Source: a virus. Taken from it: 46,043 nt of DNA. The position numbers were made by a program, and so were the translations under genes. Shown piece after piece: positions 2,073 through 16,246 of the stretch. Under the pieces are notes generated by a model that saw only the letters and a program-made list of their open reading frames with translations, searched no databases and was not told the origin of the DNA. The stretch lies in the IMG/VR virus record IMGVR_UViG_3300025669_000006; one strand, given 5' to 3'. Position 1 is the stretch's first letter, and every line of letters starts with the position of its first letter.

Positions 2073-2876
2073 CTAATTGTCCGTGTTGTAATCGCGAAGC
2101 CAAGTGGTGCCTGTCCAGGTGACTTGCAAAACGTCAGTTCCGCCAAGCACTACGTCAGCGCCACCAAGATCTGTAGTAGCTCCGTCCTTCACCGTGATAG
2201 CGTTCGAGTCCATATTGATGATCTTGAGGAGTTGGCCCGTCACCGTGCCATCGGCGATAGCTTTCGAGGCCGAAGTCGAAACAGAACCGGCTGCGTCAAT
2301 CAGAACGAGCGTCTGATCGCTGTGAGGGATCGTAAGTCCTGCCGTGATAGTGGCAGTTGTTCCGGGAGCAAAGGCAATCGCAGCGTTAACTGACAGCGCG
2401 GTTGTGTTTGCGGATGGTCTATCCAGACTTCCACCCAGCTCGATGTTCCCGCTTATAGCCGCGTCGCCATCGGTCAATGTGAGGTCGCCATCCGTCAGCG
2501 TCAAGTCTCCAAGCGTCAAGTCCGCGTCGCCATCGGTCAGGGTGAGGTTGCCGTCGGTGAGCGTCAAGTCTCCAAGCGTCAATACCCAGTCGCCAGAAGA
2601 GGCGGTTAGATCCGCACCAATCGTGACATCACCCACGAGTTCCGTTGTCTTTTCAACTTTGAGGTATTGCGGCTGTACGAGCTGGAACCGGCTGCGGTGC
2701 AGGTTCTGTGCTTGGACGGTTGGTGTCGGTGCGAGCACGCCGGCAGCGAGAGAGAATGCGAACGCGATGATGCACAGGCTGCTGAGTGCAGCCGCGTATT
2801 TCTTGTATGTTCCCACGATTCTAATCCTTCTGTGTTTTGGTTTGTCGGCAAGAGAGCCGGAGCCCTGGGAGGTCAT
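2073..2876 (-). CDS. Signal-anchored or secreted repeat protein (LTLTDG-type repeats) with a C-terminal module shared with the 888-aa protein at 29200..31866
   Basis: Signal-peptide-like N-terminus: KKY, then AAALSSLCIIAFAFSLAAGVLA, then PTPTVQA-Q. Alternative GTG start at 2816, preceded by AAGGA 8 nt upstream. Two tandem 21-aa units. The last ~110 aa align with the C-terminus of 29200..31866. Confidence 0.7.
   Translation of the reverse strand: MTSQGSGSLADKPKHRRIRIVGTYKKYAAALSSLCIIAFAFSLAAGVLAPTPTVQAQNLHRSRFQLVQPQYLKVEKTTELVGDVTIGADLTASSGDWVLTLGDLTLTDGNLTLTDGDADLTLGDLTLTDGDLTLTDGDAAISGNIELGGSLDRPSANTTALSVNAAIAFAPGTTATITAGLTIPHSDQTLVLIDAAGSVSTSASKAIADGTVTGQLLKIINMDSNAITVKDGATTDLGGADVVLGGTDVLQVTWTGTTWLRDYNTDN
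2461..2586 (-). repeat. Tandem 63-bp duplication (2 copies) inside CDS 2073..2876
   Basis: 2461-2523 and 2524-2586 are near-identical (gcgtcgccatcggtca..gtgaggt.gcc.tc.gt.agcgtcaagtctccaagcgtcaa). They encode LTLGDLTLTDG(N/D)LTLTDGDA(D/A). Confidence 0.85.
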
Positions 2877-2932
2877 TCCAAGACCCCGGTCTCTCTGTAC
2901 TTCGGCCCGCTTGCACAGACCGAAGGGAACCG

Positions 2933-4036
2933 CTAGTTACCAATCGGAGCAGTATATCCAGTGGGCACAAGGTACGTCCCCGCGCTGCCAAGTCCGCCTG
3001 CATCGCCGATACGGTACACCAAAGCGCCGACACGGTTGTTGGCGGCAAACCCGACAATCCGCTCCCATGTCGATTCCTGCAATGGGTACAAGGTGTTCTG
3101 GGACACAAGCTGGAAGCCACGAAGCTCGGGAGTCTCAGACTCACGCATCCACAAGGGCGGCGTGCCTGCTGGGCTGGGTGCCACGGCGATCATGTACCCG
3201 GCTGGCAATGCCCTCCAGTGCACGATCCATCCGCCGTCCGCGTGGTAGCCCAGGATCTCGCCGGGGACCGGGAATCCGAGCACGCCTACAAGCTTATCAG
3301 CGCTGTCGCCGGCCTGGATGTTCGGGTCTTCCGGCAAATGGAACGCGGCGAGCGCTTGGGTTGTCGCGACCAGGCTTGTGGATATGAACGTAACGACGGT
3401 CCCGTTTACGTTCTCAGGGTGTTCTAGGAGCTCCTCCTTGATGATTGGGTACGGGTCTGTCCCATCTGCGATGGCGGCGGCTTGTGCAAGCTGGTGTGTG
3501 TCGTCTGAGCCCGTTAGGGCTGCACCTCTCGCCTGATACAGCGTGCCGTCCCCGTTTGCAAGCGGCTCAATTGTCAGCGTGCCATATTTGGGATCGGGAT
3601 ACGCCCAGGACACGAGGCTGAACAGGGCCGACCACACTAGATTGCGCTGCCAGTAGGCATCCGCGATCATGGCGGCATATGTTTCGTCCGCCACCATTTT
3701 GACGGTCATTGCGGCGGCGGCCATTCGGGTCAAGCCGTTGCCCGTTTGTGCGTGCTGCAAGTGCGCCGCGACAGTGTACGAAGTGATTCCTTTTGAGGGA
3801 AGCGCCCGCGAAAACTCATCAGCGGGCAGCATGTTACGAAGCACATTCGACTGGAACTTCATCTGGTGTTCTGTGGTTTGCGTCGTGAAGACGCTCAGCA
3901 TCTCTGCGGACTCTTTGTTCCAGTCCTCAAGCGACTTGAGAACCGCTTCTGCTACGATTTCCGGTCCCGCCGCAGTGACTGTGCGGTCCATTATGTCGTC
4001 CAGGTCTAGGAACCCTGACGGTACGAGTGTTGCCAT
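2933..4036 (-). CDS. Major capsid protein (candidate, 367 aa)
   Basis: Position: third gene after the late promoter, behind scaffold and decoration-like genes. Typical size. AAGGAGA RBS. No diagnostic motif could be checked without a search. Confidence 0.6.
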   Translation of the reverse strand: MATLVPSGFLDLDDIMDRTVTAAGPEIVAEAVLKSLEDWNKESAEMLSVFTTQTTEHQMKFQSNVLRNMLPADEFSRALPSKGITSYTVAAHLQHAQTGNGLTRMAAAAMTVKMVADETYAAMIADAYWQRNLVWSALFSLVSWAYPDPKYGTLTIEPLANGDGTLYQARGAALTGSDDTHQLAQAAAIADGTDPYPIIKEELLEHPENVNGTVVTFISTSLVATTQALAAFHLPEDPNIQAGDSADKLVGVLGFPVPGEILGYHADGGWIVHWRALPAGYMIAVAPSPAGTPPLWMRESETPELRGFQLVSQNTLYPLQESTWERIVGFAANNRVGALVYRIGDAGGLGSAGTYLVPTGYTAPIGN

Positions 4037-4079
4037 GATCGTGATCTCCTTGTTGAAGGCATGCGCCTTGCGTTGTGGC

Positions 4080-4805
4080 TTAGATGCCTATCATCAAGAT
4101 TTTGTCTGGGGTTTGGCCCTTCGAAACGTCATGCTTCGCAAGGACGTGTCCGACGACTTTCAGAGTGACGCCTTCGGTGGTCGCAACAATTCCGATGGTC
4201 GGGGAACTTCCGCCCGTCATGGAATTTGTGGCCAACGTGATCAGCGGCAACGCTTTGCCCTGGAGAGAGGCACCGAACGTGATCACAAACGGGCCTTCTG
4301 AGCCGCCAGAGCCTGATACGTTTCCGGCGCCGATATTGGAAAGCAATCCGAGTGCCGTGGCCACCTGTGCGCCCGTGGCGTCGTAGGCGATCTCTGCCGT
4401 TTCTTGGCCGTCGAGTCCGAGTGTGAATGTACCGCCAGTGGGAGACCCTGATTCTGTGAGCGTTTGAACTTCGGATACTCCGGCTTGCGCGGATGCAAGT
4501 TTGCCAGGAGTCGAACTCAGGAAGACAGGATCGCCGAAGTCGAGAGCCGTCAGGTCGAAGCCTGATATTCGACCTTGAAGCACCGCTGTACTACCCATTC
4601 GGATAACAGCGTCCTTGATGACAATGCCGAAGGGCCTGTCAAGAGCCGCTACGTTGGCGTCGGACAGGACGTGCGCCCCCGCCGCTGCGCTGAGGGTTAC
4701 TACATCCCCCGATGAAAGAGCAACCCCAGCCGGGTTGGTCATCCCCACAAAATTAAGGTCAAGGACCGCAACGTCCTTGCCGCTCTCTAGTGCCAAGTCG
4801 GCCAT
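4080..4805 (-). CDS. Head decoration/auxiliary capsid protein candidate carrying an inserted ~90-aa module also present in the major tail protein
   Basis: Lies between scaffold and capsid genes. GAAGGAGA RBS. The internal segment VSEVQTLTESGSPTGGTFTLGLDGQETAEIAYDATGAQVATALGLLSNIGAGNVSGSGGSEGPFVITF aligns with 41576..42427. Confidence 0.5.
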   Translation of the reverse strand: MADLALESGKDVAVLDLNFVGMTNPAGVALSSGDVVTLSAAAGAHVLSDANVAALDRPFGIVIKDAVIRMGSTAVLQGRISGFDLTALDFGDPVFLSSTPGKLASAQAGVSEVQTLTESGSPTGGTFTLGLDGQETAEIAYDATGAQVATALGLLSNIGAGNVSGSGGSEGPFVITFGASLQGKALPLITLATNSMTGGSSPTIGIVATTEGVTLKVVGHVLAKHDVSKGQTPDKILMIGI

Positions 4806-13100: not shown

Positions 13101-13943
13101 TCACGGCAGACTCCCTTCCACGTCGCAGTTGTGCGGCTGGTCCTTTGGGTGCATCATTTCGCACCCTGGACACTGCACCCAGTCCTTTGTGCATGCAGCG
13201 CAGTAGTAGTTCCCAGTTTCCATATTTTCGATGTACTCGTCGGAAGCAGTGTCTACCCACGCATCACAGCTTGAGCAGTGCTCATAACACATCGAGTTGC
13301 CTATAAGCTCATCCCGTTGATCCACCTCGCCCCGTAACTCTTCCACTTCCCCCTTTGCCTCTGCGAGTTGCCTACCTCTGTTGAAACTCTCTGTCGCGGC
13401 TTGGTTGAACCTGTCCTGGAACTGTATAGCGTTTCGTTCCCACATATCACGGTCAGCGCGGAGAAAGGCGCTTGATGCTTTCGCCTTCTTGAACTGCGCA
13501 TCTGCCCTGTTCATCTCGCCTAAGGCTTCCTGCAATGTGTGTTTATGATCCACCTCTTCGCTTGCAAGTGCCCTCTTCGCTGTCGCCACCTCATCCCGTA
13601 ACTCTTCCACTTCCCCTTTTGCCTCTGCGAGTTGGGCGCGGAGTTTGTCACGTTCCTCAGACCCTTCACTAAGTCCTCTCGCTAGTGCTTCCGTGATCGT
13701 CTCGCCCCCACCATCTCCATCACCATCGAAAATTGTGTTCTCGCAGAATTCACTTGCCAGCGCGGTACGAATGTACCGCGCCTCGGCGAGTTTGTTGAGT
13801 GGGTGCTGGCCGCACCAATTGGATGACCCCTTTCCCGTCCCGGTAGGATCTCGTCTGCATACCCTACACCCATTTCCCTTCACCAAAAACCACGGACACG
13901 TCTCACACGTCGCGGCCTTGTCTCGCATGTTTAGCTCTTTCAT
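13101..13943 (-). CDS. Cys-cluster / coiled-coil protein (280 aa), unknown function
   Basis: N-terminal CETCPWF...CRVC...WCGQH and C-terminal CYEHCSSC...CAAC...CPGC clusters flank a coiled coil with a duplicated QLAEAKGEVEELR(D/G)EV. ATGA coupling to the upstream gene. Confidence 0.6.
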   Translation of the reverse strand: MKELNMRDKAATCETCPWFLVKGNGCRVCRRDPTGTGKGSSNWCGQHPLNKLAEARYIRTALASEFCENTIFDGDGDGGGETITEALARGLSEGSEERDKLRAQLAEAKGEVEELRDEVATAKRALASEEVDHKHTLQEALGEMNRADAQFKKAKASSAFLRADRDMWERNAIQFQDRFNQAATESFNRGRQLAEAKGEVEELRGEVDQRDELIGNSMCYEHCSSCDAWVDTASDEYIENMETGNYYCAACTKDWVQCPGCEMMHPKDQPHNCDVEGSLP

Positions 13944-14275
13944 AACCTTAATCCTCCACGTTTTGCCGCCGCTATGACCTTAGATGCAACATACCGGCTT
14001 GGCGCTTTCAGTGGACCAAGCCCCTTGACCCGTGACTCTGCTGGCCGCATATTCTCCTCCACGCAGGTCTGCGCGTAATCCAGCGCGACCGCCTCGTCCC
14101 GCGTATCCCGGTTGGCCATATAGATCGTATAGACCTCGTCTGGGGCTCGGTGCATCACATCCACAAACCAGCGGCGGCCCGCGTCGTCCGGGTCTACCCG
14201 CGCCTCGATGTTGCCGTCGGTCTCCGATCTCACCTCGCCGCGCCAGGCGTTCGAGTGTGGTGTGGTGTCATTCAT
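13940..14275 (-). CDS. Hypothetical protein (111 aa)
   Basis: ATG 14275 overlaps the frame-A MTase stop within AAATGAATGA. Confidence 0.55.
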   Translation of the reverse strand: MNDTTPHSNAWRGEVRSETDGNIEARVDPDDAGRRWFVDVMHRAPDEVYTIYMANRDTRDEAVALDYAQTCVEENMRPAESRVKGLGPLKAPSRYVASKVIAAAKRGGLRL

Positions 14276-15407
14276 TTGGTGGCCTCTCTGTTTCGTGCTT
14301 CAGCACGTGCAATAAAACAGCATGCTGCTTTTGCCGCCACGATTGGGTGTACTCCGTTGCCACAGCCTCGAAGGCGGTCCACCCGATAGGCCAGCCCATC
14401 AGCCACTCGACGAAATTCGGGTTCAGCATCCGCGCCAGCTTCGGCTGCCATTCGGGTAAGCTCAGCAGCAGACGGTAGAGAAGGGGCAACCCATGCGTTA
14501 CGGCTAAGGACTTCGGCCCATGCACCTTTATCTCTTGGACCTGGTGGGAAAGGTCCGAGTCCTTCCGCTTGCCCGCGCTCAGCTTGTAGCCGTCTGCGCT
14601 CATCGGGGTGGGCCAGTGCTTCGCTTGGGACTCCAGCCCCACCGTCCGCTTGCCCGTTGCCGTCGCACCCTTTGCTGCTACCACTTCCGCTGACACACTG
14701 CGACCGCCGTTCGGCCAGTTCGGGGTCATCCACTGTGCCGCCTCCCCCGCCAGTGTCTTGCCGTGTCCGTTCCCGTGGCTCGGTGCGTTCCTCGTGGTCC
14801 TGTTCTCGTTGGCGCTGGCTCGGGGGGTTGGCCAAGTGCTCGCCGCACTCTGTAGTCCTGGTGTGTGCCTGTCCGCCTGTGATGGTCCGTCCGCCTTCGC
14901 ACAGTGCGCCGTCGCGGTAGGCAAGGATGAACAGTCGCTTGCGGAGGTGAGGCGCACCCACTTCAGCCGCGCTAAACAGTCCTGCTTCAACCCGGTAACC
15001 CATTCCTCGTAAGTCGGCTCTGACCTCTTCAAAGCCCAGTCTAATGTGGTTTGCGACGTTCTCGAAGAAACAGAGTCCTGGCTGTACCTCTGACACAATG
15101 CGTCGAACGTCGGGCCACAGGTGTCTCGGATCATCTGCGCCGCGTCGGCGACCGGCGACACTGAAGGGCTGGCATGGGTAGCCGCCAGAGACGATATCCA
15201 CCAAGCCGCGCCACGGTCTGCCGTCGAAGGTTTTGATATCGTCCCAGATAGGCGCGCTATCCATGGCCGAATCTTCCATCCGCGCCACGAGAGCAGCCGC
15301 TGCGTAGGCTTCCCGCTCGACGTAACCCACAGTTCGATATCCGTCCCCGAGGGCGAGGCTGATCCCGAGTTCGAGCCCGCCAATTCCTGCACATAAAGCC
15401 AAGCCAT
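14268..15407 (-). CDS. Co-extensive +1-frame ORF (frame B, 379 codons) inside the C5-MTase gene; candidate overprinted gene or recoding partner
   Basis: Open for 1140 nt, one nucleotide out of phase with frame A. Carries TWPTPRAS, HWPTPMSADG and LNPNFVEWLMGWPIGWT, motifs I associate (from memory) with phage methyltransferase-type proteins. See finding. Confidence 0.35.
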   Translation of the reverse strand: MAWLYVQELAGSNSGSASPSGTDIELWVTSSGKPTQRLLSWRGWKIRPWIARLSGTISKPSTADRGAAWWISSLAATHASPSVSPVADAAQMIRDTCGPTFDALCQRYSQDSVSSRTSQTTLDWALKRSEPTYEEWVTGLKQDCLARLKWVRLTSASDCSSLPTATAHCAKADGPSQADRHTPGLQSAASTWPTPRASANENRTTRNAPSHGNGHGKTLAGEAAQWMTPNWPNGGRSVSAEVVAAKGATATGKRTVGLESQAKHWPTPMSADGYKLSAGKRKDSDLSHQVQEIKVHGPKSLAVTHGLPLLYRLLLSLPEWQPKLARMLNPNFVEWLMGWPIGWTAFEAVATEYTQSWRQKQHAVLLHVLKHETERPPNE

Positions 15408-15411
15408 TCAT
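14272..15411 (-). CDS. dcm: DNA (cytosine-5)-methyltransferase (frame A)
   Basis: Motif I LCAGIGG, motif IV GGYPCQPFSVAG, motif VI FFENV, motif VIII GAPHLRKRLFILA, then FPPGP...W and RVDRLRGCGNGVHPIVA (motif X). Confidence 0.85.
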   Translation of the reverse strand: MNGLALCAGIGGLELGISLALGDGYRTVGYVEREAYAAAALVARMEDSAMDSAPIWDDIKTFDGRPWRGLVDIVSGGYPCQPFSVAGRRRGADDPRHLWPDVRRIVSEVQPGLCFFENVANHIRLGFEEVRADLRGMGYRVEAGLFSAAEVGAPHLRKRLFILAYRDGALCEGGRTITGGQAHTRTTECGEHLANPPSQRQREQDHEERTEPRERTRQDTGGGGGTVDDPELAERRSQCVSGSGSSKGCDGNGQADGGAGVPSEALAHPDERRRLQAERGQAEGLGPFPPGPRDKGAWAEVLSRNAWVAPSLPSAAELTRMAAEAGADAEPEFRRVADGLAYRVDRLRGCGNGVHPIVAAKAACCFIARAEARNREATK

Positions 15412-15469
15412 TTATTCTCCTTAATATTGACCCGTTTCACGTTGTGGGCTGTCAGTTTCAAGACCTGCA

Positions 15470-16246
15470 TTATTTGTCTCTCCTCTTTGGTAGACTTCTG
15501 TTGGACAACCACCACTCCCACATCTCTTCCCAAGAGTCGAAGCGCATTTTCATACTCCAATCGTCAGGGCGAGAGCTCCACAACCTGCGGAATGCACTAG
15601 CCCATGCGCGTTTATGTCCCGGCCACCGCACAAACTGTGCGTCGCGTCCGGCCTTTCGGGCCTGAGGGCATCCTATACATCCCAGGCGATCAAAGCCCTC
15701 GTCGTAGAGAGAGCAATATGGAGCGCTGTTGTCGCGGATAAACTCCCACACCCCCACCTGTGTCCAATGGAAGATGGGGTTGAGCACCAGTCCTCCACTT
15801 TTCCAGTGTGCCGACACCTCATCCCAGTCGCGTGCTCTGCGCCCCGATTCCTCGGCGCGGATCCCCATGAGCATTGACCGGCCATCTCGCGGATAACTGT
15901 GTTCTTTGAGTGCGGCACAGCACCAGCGCTGCTTGCGTGTAGGAAATCCCCTCTTAGGAAAGCTCTCGAAGAAGGACCGCTTCGGGCGCACAAACTCCAC
16001 ATCTGGGTGGTGCTGGCGGATAAACCTTGTCAACTCTGGTGGGTCTATACCTGTGGCGTTGTAATGCCAGTCTGCCTTGATTCCGCCCATGTCTGCCAAC
16101 GCCTTGATCACAACGGAGTCCTTGCCTCCCGAAAAACAGCCGTAGTAACCATCCTCAGGTTCGTACTCACGAAGCAGTGCGATAGCCTTCTCGACCTTCA
16201 TATTGTCTACCCTTTCCGTAGTGTCCGGCTCTTGCGTCCGGCTCAT
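15470..16246 (-). CDS. PAPS-reductase/PP-loop ATPase family protein (DndC/IbrA-like phage type)
   Basis: PP-loop CFSGGKDSVV, plus RWCC..LK and the C-terminal CIGCP cluster typical of phage PAPS-reductase-like proteins. Alternative start at ATG 16201. Confidence 0.8.
   Translation of the reverse strand: MSRTQEPDTTERVDNMKVEKAIALLREYEPEDGYYGCFSGGKDSVVIKALADMGGIKADWHYNATGIDPPELTRFIRQHHPDVEFVRPKRSFFESFPKRGFPTRKQRWCCAALKEHSYPRDGRSMLMGIRAEESGRRARDWDEVSAHWKSGGLVLNPIFHWTQVGVWEFIRDNSAPYCSLYDEGFDRLGCIGCPQARKAGRDAQFVRWPGHKRAWASAFRRLWSSRPDDWSMKMRFDSWEEMWEWWLSNRSLPKRRDK

Follow-up and report, generated by a model that had tools for sequence, protein, structure and literature searches.

Two co-extensive reading frames at a phage cytosine-5 methyltransferase locus: a probable two-polypeptide enzyme encoded by one gene

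Layout of the two-frame locus

In the viral DNA stretch IMGVR_UViG_3300025669_000006 of IMG/VR (46,043 nucleotides (nt), hereafter the window, meaning the whole stretch that was analysed), one minus-strand locus carries two open reading frames (ORFs) of 379 codons each. ORF A reads as a chain, here called alpha, with motifs of a DNA (cytosine-5) methyltransferase (C5-MTase); ORF B lies in the +1 frame of A and reads as a second chain, beta. Their ATG codons both lie within ATGAATGG and their TGA stops both lie within AAATGAATGA, in each case 4 nt apart (Table 1). The two ORFs and their open frames, a conserved double start, an interleaved pattern of constraint, and a large family of relatives are matters of observation, and they are described before the interpretation that we prefer.

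An earlier note on this DNA, made from the letters and the ORF translations, had placed two same-strand 379-codon ORFs here, with starts at 15411 and 15407 and stops at 14272 and 14268; sequence and translations confirm these positions, and the motifs that the note quoted from both frames all lie at the expected places. Its codon census needs a small correction: the 6 NTA codons of frame A are as counted, while the NTG codons number 25 instead of about 24, and one codon does precede a base that creates a +1-frame stop, namely the start ATG. The stop so created, the TGA just before the beta ATG, is the sole +1-frame stop in the gene. Both starts could be served by a single putative Shine-Dalgarno sequence, AAGGAG, judging from its position. 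A version of ATGAATGG without the beta ATG can be written as ATGAACGG, which is silent in alpha (codon 2 changes from AAT to AAC).

The stop cluster also contains a start: the 111-codon ORF that comes next downstream (13940..14275) begins with an ATG that overlaps the alpha stop as ATGA, and the ten bases of AAATGAATGA thus hold two stops and a start, each in a frame of its own.

Table 1. Coordinates of the features of the two-frame locus in the window
Feature	Position	Strand	Description
ORF A (alpha)	15411..14272	minus	379 codons + TGA; proposed large-domain chain of a C5 cytosine methyltransferase: motifs I, IV, VI, VIII, spacer, motif X
ORF B (beta)	15407..14268	minus	379 codons + TGA; +1 frame of A; leader, WPTP-repeat variable region, motif-IX-like box, tail
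Double start ATGaATG	15405..15411	minus	alpha ATG 15411-15409, beta ATG 15407-15405
Shine-Dalgarno-like AAGGAG	15417..15422	minus	5 nt upstream of alpha ATG, 9 nt upstream of beta ATG; seen in the sequence
Alpha N part (A residues 1-168)	14908..15411	minus	motif I LCAGIGG, IV GGYPCQPFS, VI FFENV, VIII APHLRKRLF; frame A constrained in relatives
Beta leader (B residues 1-189)	14841..15407	minus	kept open, weak protein constraint
Alpha spacer (A residues ~169-333)	14413..14907	minus	kept open, neutral as protein; predicted disorder 173-285; -1 reading of the beta variable region
Beta variable region, resembling a target-recognition domain (TRD) (B residues 190-327)	14427..14840	minus	repeats TWPTPRAS, WMTPNWPNGG, HWPTPMSADG
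Beta motif-IX-like box LNPNFVEWLMGWPIGWT (B residues 328-344)	14376..14426	minus	overlaps alpha RRVADGLAYRVD; sole stretch with strong constraint in both frames
Alpha C part (A residues 334-379)	14275..14412	minus	RRVADGLAY, RVDRLRGCGNGVHP (motif X), C-terminal helix
Stop cluster AAATGAATGA	14268..14277	minus	alpha stop 14274-14272; beta stop 14270-14268; downstream-ORF ATG 14275-14273

Conservation and selection in both frames

Base composition is insufficient to explain the open +1 frame, since the GC content of the gene is only 61% (56% for the window) and its third frame contains 18 stops. In the permutation test that the earlier note had suggested, the synonymous codons of frame A were shuffled 20,000 times and the +1-frame stops were counted: the shuffled sequences held 6.6 such stops on average, the single observed stop was matched in 2 of the 20,000, and none was free of stops. 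Same-strand alternative-frame open runs elsewhere in the window (inside ORFs of at least 250 codons) reach at most 224 codons, which is far shorter, as the note had said, though its range of about 65 to 200 codons was set too low at the upper end. The same shuffles applied to 15 representative relatives sharing less than 85% identity predicted 30.7 stops in the beta leader and 26.6 in the middle (spacer) part of alpha, and no stop was observed in either. Profiles by frame of the GC content at third codon positions point to frame A at the N terminus and, in the 3' third, to frame B, which is suggestive, not decisive.

The layout is widely conserved. Frame-B relatives led to 160 loci, most of them in prophages of Alphaproteobacteria (Rhodobacterales and others), with IMG/VR contigs in addition, and the full set of homologous loci fetched numbers 170 (L001-L171 less one duplicate). 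All 170 have the frame-B-type ORF within a C5-MTase gene, in its +1 frame; the earlier note had asked about frame-B matches outside the +1 frame of such a gene, and none occurs among these loci. About 155 of 162 loci, which share 35-45% beta identity with the window, have the two frames open over the full length of the gene, and the alpha and beta stops in most relatives are 13-16 nt apart. The ATGnATG double start is found at 132 of 150 homologous loci, and 16 more have a GTG or TTG start for alpha and retain the beta ATG; in relatives the double start often adjoins the stop of the upstream gene. In the co-extensive lineages, no conserved internal start or Shine-Dalgarno sequence that could serve beta was found upstream of the variable region. 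The two-frame layout also occurs in Burkholderia phage phi1026b, in Acidovorax phage Alfacinha3 and in the window's own clade (L170 and L171), and the gene of Acinetobacter phage ABMM1, with a GC content of 50%, has 1, 2 and 28 stops in its three frames.

Individual loci depart from the common pattern in small ways. L171, a close relative of the window, has AAGGAG 2 nt from the alpha ATG and 6 nt from a beta GTG (525-545), and such differences in spacing may set the ratio of alpha to beta initiation differently between phages. Single stops interrupt frame A in L103 (at about 3635) and frame B in L135 (at about 3700), in genes that are otherwise intact; these could be sequencing errors or recent inactivations.

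Where selection acts was measured by overlap-aware ratios of nonsynonymous to synonymous change (dN/dS, written ω) after OLGenie, taking dNN/dSN for frame A and dNN/dNS for frame B, in 61 phylogenetically independent pairs of 82-95% nucleotide identity. These pairs come from a Rhodobacterales prophage cluster (about 40% beta identity to the window) and not from the window's own sparse clade.

Table 2. Overlap-aware dN/dS by segment, in the codon numbering of locus L007 (ranges in brackets)
Segment	ω, frame A	ω, frame B
Motifs I-VIII (8-185)	0.15 (0.14-0.16)	0.60 (0.54-0.65)
WPTP-repeat region (191-320)	1.25 (1.14-1.38)	0.11 (0.10-0.12)
Short stretch (321-350)	0.73	0.63
IX / pre-X box (351-366)	0.04	0.05
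Tail (motif X)	0.09 (0.01-0.09 across analyses)	0.46

Purifying selection thus alternates from A to B and back to A along the gene (Table 2), and the transition from A to B is sharp at the first WPTP. Strong dual constraint is confined to about 16 codons, where B reads FVE.LMGWP.GWT and A reads ADGLAHRVDRLR. The third frame, taken as a control, gave ω of 1.0-1.4 (1.41 over the leader stretch); set against this value, the ω of 0.60 for the beta leader suggests that the leader contributes weakly, perhaps to the association with alpha. Stop depletion in homologues, which the earlier note had proposed to look for, is found together with selection, and frame B is strongly constrained in its variable region and in the motif-IX-like box.

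Comparison between lineages follows the same division. The motif-IX-like box of B keeps 70-94% identity when the window is compared with phi1026b and ABMM1, and the C part of alpha is 62-81% identical across lineages. Identity between lineages falls to 23-50% in the variable region of B, as expected for a specificity domain if the region is one, and to 18-29% in the middle of A.

Two chains, one enzyme: the proposed reading and its rivals

Frame A by itself is a partial C5 cytosine methyltransferase, without the target-recognition region and motif IX. It matches PF00145 with E=3.9e-30 over residues 2-171, corresponding to profile positions 2-167 of 324, and phrog_363 with E=2.2e-58; its homologues bear the NCBI name 'DNA cytosine methyltransferase', its score for TIGR00675 (dcm, NCBIfam) falls under the cut-off, and its sequence matches in the PDB (M.HhaI, M.HaeIII) end at residue 167. 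Motifs I, IV, VI and VIII of single-chain C5-MTases are all present, and between VIII and X, beyond the point where the PF00145 match stops, there is no recognisable variable region or motif IX, so that the complete motif series claimed for this frame in the earlier note is not there. A motif-X-like GNGVHP / RVDRLRGCGNGVHP follows in frame A, of which the PF00145 match falls short even in an artificial A/B/A chimera. Pfam searches with the motif-X fragment of A, with B, with the C-terminal 80 residues of B and with the chimera reached nothing beyond PF00145 positions 2-169, and motifs IX and X are therefore assigned without confirmation by a hidden Markov model. The AlphaFold2 model of alpha, for which 50 homologues were used, has two confident regions, namely residues 1-172, a Rossmann-type domain, and residues 351-379. 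The predicted local distance difference test score (pLDDT) has a mean of about 80 for residues 1-170 (falling to about 50 at 31-50), lies at 32-39 over residues 173-285 (predicted disorder), and is 76-93 in the C-terminal helix of residues 351-379. With this model Foldseek aligned about 172 columns to M.HaeIII (1dct) and M.HhaI, at E of about 1e-11.

Frame B belongs to a large family with little annotation. It has 615 homologues at E<=1e-3, covering 90-100% of its length; the best 120 of these are unnamed or called 'hypothetical protein', few come from NCBI, and none has a Pfam domain. A profile built from 47 homologues reaches 43,000 cluster representatives at E<=1e-3, 5,512 of them at E<=1e-30, which bears out the earlier note's statement that the motifs of this frame recur in hypothetical proteins of the databases. 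B itself matches phrog_1008, labelled 'DNA methyltransferase', with E=1.9e-19, and the ABMM1 +1 ORF, gp50 of Paenibacillus phage Diva and ORF28 of E. coli phage K1ind2 match the same family with E between 1e-73 and 5e-28. Pfam and NCBIfam searches with frame B gave no match, the family profile returned only noise from PDB sequences (including MS2 coat protein and eIF3c), and the AlphaFold2 model of beta alone (mean pLDDT 55) is too poor for a fold search. No in-frame alpha-beta fusion or single-chain ancestor, as PF00145 would reveal, is present among the best 120 of the 615 homologues, and eight unusually long beta matches examined for fusion have no Pfam domain.

The strongest conservation in beta is the box R.LNP.F.EWLMGWP.GWT, which stands directly before motif X of A, where a single-chain enzyme has motif IX; within it RMLNPNFVEWLMGWPIGWT resembles the motif IX pattern R.L.P.E.a.lqGfPd.f, although no profile or structure search match backs that assignment. 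Much of the likeness among relatives in the leader of B is a +1 shadow of the motifs of A, with AATHAS and RAKTS deriving from G(G/F)(Y/F)PCQ and SAR.TSASG.SS from motif VIII; the pairing of AATHAS with GGYPCQ had been pointed out in the earlier note, and it is seen here.

C5-MTases are described as having a large domain formed by motifs I-VIII together with X, plus a small domain formed by the variable region and motif IX. In M.EcoHK31I of E. coli HK31, a natural heterodimeric C5-MTase, the published descriptions place beta in another frame inside the alpha gene, assign motifs I-VIII and X to alpha and motif IX to beta, and state that both chains are needed for activity (PMC2836561, PMC3404938). 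By the same accounts, activity in vivo is abolished when the beta starts are removed by changes silent in alpha, and beta can in part dispense with its N-terminal portion, truncations beyond about 42 residues weakening the association (PMC2836561, PMC3404938).

We consider it probable that the locus in the window is, likewise, a dual-coding gene for a two-polypeptide C5-MTase, the frames being translated independently from the double start. A ribosome would begin at either of the two ATGs, sharing one Shine-Dalgarno sequence; in many relatives the starts would instead be coupled to the stop of the upstream gene. Alpha would comprise the catalytic and S-adenosylmethionine-binding motifs I-VIII, a largely disordered and sequence-indifferent spacer of about 165 residues, and motif X, which together make up the large domain. 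Beta would comprise a weakly constrained leader of about 190 residues, the WPTP variable region and the motif-IX-like box, making up the small domain. The two chains would assemble non-covalently into the active enzyme, as in M.EcoHK31I, and spacer and leader would stay free of stops as the sole route by which a ribosome can reach the functional segment in its own frame. That beta is translated, that it associates with alpha, and that both are needed for methylation are what we infer, with the conservation of both starts as indirect support.

Such a two-chain arrangement would account for the conserved starts, the full-length open frames, the nearly coincident stops, and a spacer and leader that remain stop-free but drift. 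Since A lacks a variable region and motif IX, and sequence of this kind is constrained in B, B would supply them. The view that B completes A by carrying the part of the enzyme that A lacks, instead of being an independent overprinted protein, is supported by these results. The variable region of beta is presumed to be a TRD on the grounds of its pattern, the selection acting on it and analogy, and the box would correspond to motif IX by its pattern, by selection and by the precedent of M.EcoHK31I. A weak role of the beta leader, if there is one, would match the effect of N-terminal truncation in the beta of that enzyme.

One sub-clade bears on the spacer. In L070 (about 3540-4150), L149 (about 3440-4290) and L168 (about 2020-2480), to which L169 also belongs, frame A has 4-16 stops, every one of them within the spacer; both the N part of alpha and its motif-X part are intact, as is frame B throughout, and a shared ATG (MGN(A/T)D) follows the last stop. 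An interrupted spacer between intact N and C parts of alpha fits a segment that is a connector only.

Several observations weigh against the two-polypeptide reading. The beta leader, at least about 100 residues long in every lineage, is not accounted for by it; neither the presumed TRD nor the putative motif IX of beta is recognised by the Pfam and PDB sequence searches, and beta modelled by itself gives a poor structure. The constrained segments (A, B, A) follow one another exactly in the canonical order of a single-chain enzyme, as they would in a frameshifted chimera. In the sub-clade with an interrupted spacer, motif X requires another route, either internal initiation or a -1 shift from beta. 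Finally, the published TRD prediction for M.EcoHK31I lies in alpha, not in beta.

Readings in which the ribosome changes frame, whether once or twice, together hold a minor share of our expectation. The earlier note had offered three readings, namely a genuine second protein, a programmed frameshift making chimeras of A and B, and coincidence of composition; a second product is supported, with the correction that B completes A, coincidence is rejected, and the frameshifted chimera agrees with the order of the segments and lacks any signal in cis.

Among individual rivals, the one that survives best, itself unlikely, is that B is an overprinted protein unrelated to methylation (for example, anti-defence or regulatory) and that A alone is the methyltransferase. 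The absence of Pfam or PDB relatives and the huge size of the family agree with this idea. Yet A would then be a methyltransferase without a constrained or foldable variable region and without motif IX, the motif-IX-like box of B is placed exactly where a single-chain enzyme has motif IX, before motif X of A, and the beta chain of M.EcoHK31I has a characterised motif-IX role; moreover, among the fetched loci and the longer matches checked, B-type ORFs occur only inside C5-MTase genes.

It is somewhat harder to believe that alpha is made as such and is accompanied by products of a single +1 shift or of initiation in B (giving, for example, a fusion of the alpha N part to beta), with several isoforms active. 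With both frames open throughout, any shift would give a long product, and constraint does change sharply from A to B at the first WPTP; no shift signal was found, however, and the conserved beta ATG, together with nested beta ORFs that have their own Shine-Dalgarno sequence and start elsewhere, points to independent initiation.

More doubtful again is a double programmed frameshift, in which translation of A would move +1 into B after motif VIII and -1 back into A for motif X, yielding a canonical I-VIII/TRD/IX/X single chain. The succession A, B, A of constrained segments is what this reading would produce, and the spacer stops of L070, L149 and L168, with motif X intact in frame A, are compatible with a shift from B to A. 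Against it, the stretch between motif VIII and the first WPTP can be anything from 0 to 66 codons long, and no slippery or stop-stimulated site is conserved there; at the IX/X junction the X_XXY_YYZ heptamer is missing, and long homopolymers do not occur in the window. Slippery sites and homopolymers were sought at both junctions, and none is conserved, the window having only C6 and G5 runs. Nor would two shifts need the first 190 or so codons of B or the middle 165 or so of A to be open, or a beta ATG and co-terminating stops, and yet all of these are conserved. Read against M.HhaI, the interval from motif IX to GNG would be only about 8 residues if the shift came after GWT. We know of no precedent for two efficient shifts in one gene.

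A variant of this scheme that we hold to be very improbable has the active enzyme as one chain (A 1 to about 170, B about 190 to 344, A about 345 to 379) made by a +1 and then a -1 shift, with the open frames as a fail-safe yielding alpha-only and beta-only products; L070, L149 and L168 would then be a lineage relying on the shift alone.

That frame B is a non-coding shadow ORF held open by base composition or codon bias is scarcely credible: the GC content of the gene and the fact that some B segments are literal frame-translations of conserved A motifs would suit it, but synonymous shuffles of frame A almost never reproduce the openness, which is kept at nearly all homologous loci and also in phage genes of 47-57% GC with many third-frame stops, ω for B is 0.11 where that for A is at least 1, and the beta ATG is conserved. 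Compositional coincidence, as a candidate explanation, is thus ruled out by the shuffles together with the conserved openness in homologous loci and in those phage genes.

Known systems, annotation and neighbouring genes

The two-polypeptide reading places the locus beside several known systems. As in M.EcoHK31I by its published description, the second chain lies in an alternative frame of the alpha gene, and alpha has motifs I-VIII and a sequence like motif X. Unlike that enzyme, in which beta is shorter and nested in alpha, the two ORFs are here co-extensive, beta starting 4 nt after the alpha start and stopping 4 nt after the alpha stop. Also, where the TRD of M.EcoHK31I is predicted in alpha, the only constrained sequence between motif VIII and IX/X is here in beta, and the middle of alpha is neutral and disordered.

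Closer relatives are annotated as nested ORFs in Diva (gp49/gp50, 'g49 internal gene') and K1ind2 (ORF29/ORF28, 'Mte8-like'). They share with the locus the +1 frame relation and the beta family (hhalign probability 99.5% to Diva gp50 and 97.7% to K1ind2 ORF28), the LLPTP/WPTP repeats and NP.F.EW.MG.P.GW box, and the PHROG 363 and PHROG 1008 matches. Nested beta ORFs have their own Shine-Dalgarno sequence and start in K1ind2 (GGAG, 6 nt, ATG), SW3 (AAGGAG, 8 nt, ATG) and yong1 (AGGTG, 6 nt, TTG), and in Diva too; all four belong to the beta family, by PHROG 1008 or by alignment with its profile. In contrast to Diva and K1ind2, where beta starts 29-70 codons inside alpha and ends about 15-55 codons before its end, the overlap is here complete; the window has the combination of ATGnATG and complete overlap in common with its relatives from Rhodobacterales, Burkholderia, Acidovorax and Acinetobacter.

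M.AquI of Agmenellum quadruplicatum is likewise a C5-MTase of two complementing polypeptides, whose ORFs reportedly overlap only briefly (Karreman & de Waard, 1990). Its type of linear split gives beta both IX and X, unlike the present locus, where X is in alpha, the IX-like box is in beta, and the ORFs overlap entirely. Programmed-frameshift genes (prfB, +1; dnaX and the phage tail chaperone G/GT, -1) also feed a product set from one locus and two frames; they have a conserved slippery or stop site and a second frame that is open only downstream, whereas here no conserved shift site is found and both frames are open from start to stop.

A literature search on dual coding in phage C5-MTases found only the work on M.EcoHK31I and M.AquI. 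It found no paper on the family-wide architecture, which is no proof that none exists, and the paper on 48 Paenibacillus phages says nothing about the 'internal gene'. What is known already, then, is that one C5-MTase subunit can be overprinted in the gene of the other, and the beta family itself as PHROG 1008. The complete overlap, the assignment of the constrained variable region to beta, the interleaved constraint with neutral pass-through segments, and the very large and poorly annotated family set the present case apart. The selective signature is unusually clean, in that the frames alternate in function and so few codons are under strong constraint in both. If alpha and beta are both made, the overlap (1.14 kb, 100% of both ORFs) is to our knowledge among the longest same-strand overlaps in double-stranded DNA phages, and the ATGnATG double start would be a simple means of expressing two subunits from one ribosome-binding event. 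The surprise will be smaller for specialists in restriction-modification, to whom the principle has been known since M.EcoHK31I, reportedly described by Lee, Kam & Shaw in 1995.

For annotation the consequences are practical. As the beta family is unnamed or mis-annotated, the part presumed to determine specificity in a methyltransferase that is very common in phages and prophages is overlooked at present, and prediction of methylation motifs, anti-restriction or TRD swapping for these enzymes needs both frames to be read. In Alfacinha3 (L001) the coding sequence called 'cytosine-specific methyltransferase' (gp46) is the frame-B ORF (1493-2659, as against 1456-2643), and the frame with the PF00145 motifs is unannotated. 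In phi1026b (L002, 1490-3610) frame B runs stop-free into a ParB-like gene (2789-3610), giving a 706-codon beta-ParB read-through ORF, and in several related Burkholderia phage records this read-through stretch is called 'chromosome partitioning protein'. In relatives more generally, the dual-coded C5-MTase gene is often followed by a ParB_N-N6_N4_Mtase fusion (L168, 2746-3972) or a ParB-like gene (as in L002).

In the window, a gene with a PAPS-reductase domain (15470-16246, minus strand; PF01507, E=9e-24; phrog_424) lies 58 nt upstream of the methyltransferase, and the two may belong to one DNA-modification module. The wider context is that of a phage, with the single-stranded DNA-binding protein (SSB) and other replication genes further upstream and the large terminase downstream; the two ORFs that come next downstream (13940-14275 and 13101-13943) have no family match. 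Elsewhere in the window, a 353-codon open run on the plus strand (2326-3387), with an atypical GC content by codon position (0.56/0.65/0.58), lies opposite the minus-strand ORFs 2073-2936 and 2933-4087; an antisense shadow ORF is its probable explanation.

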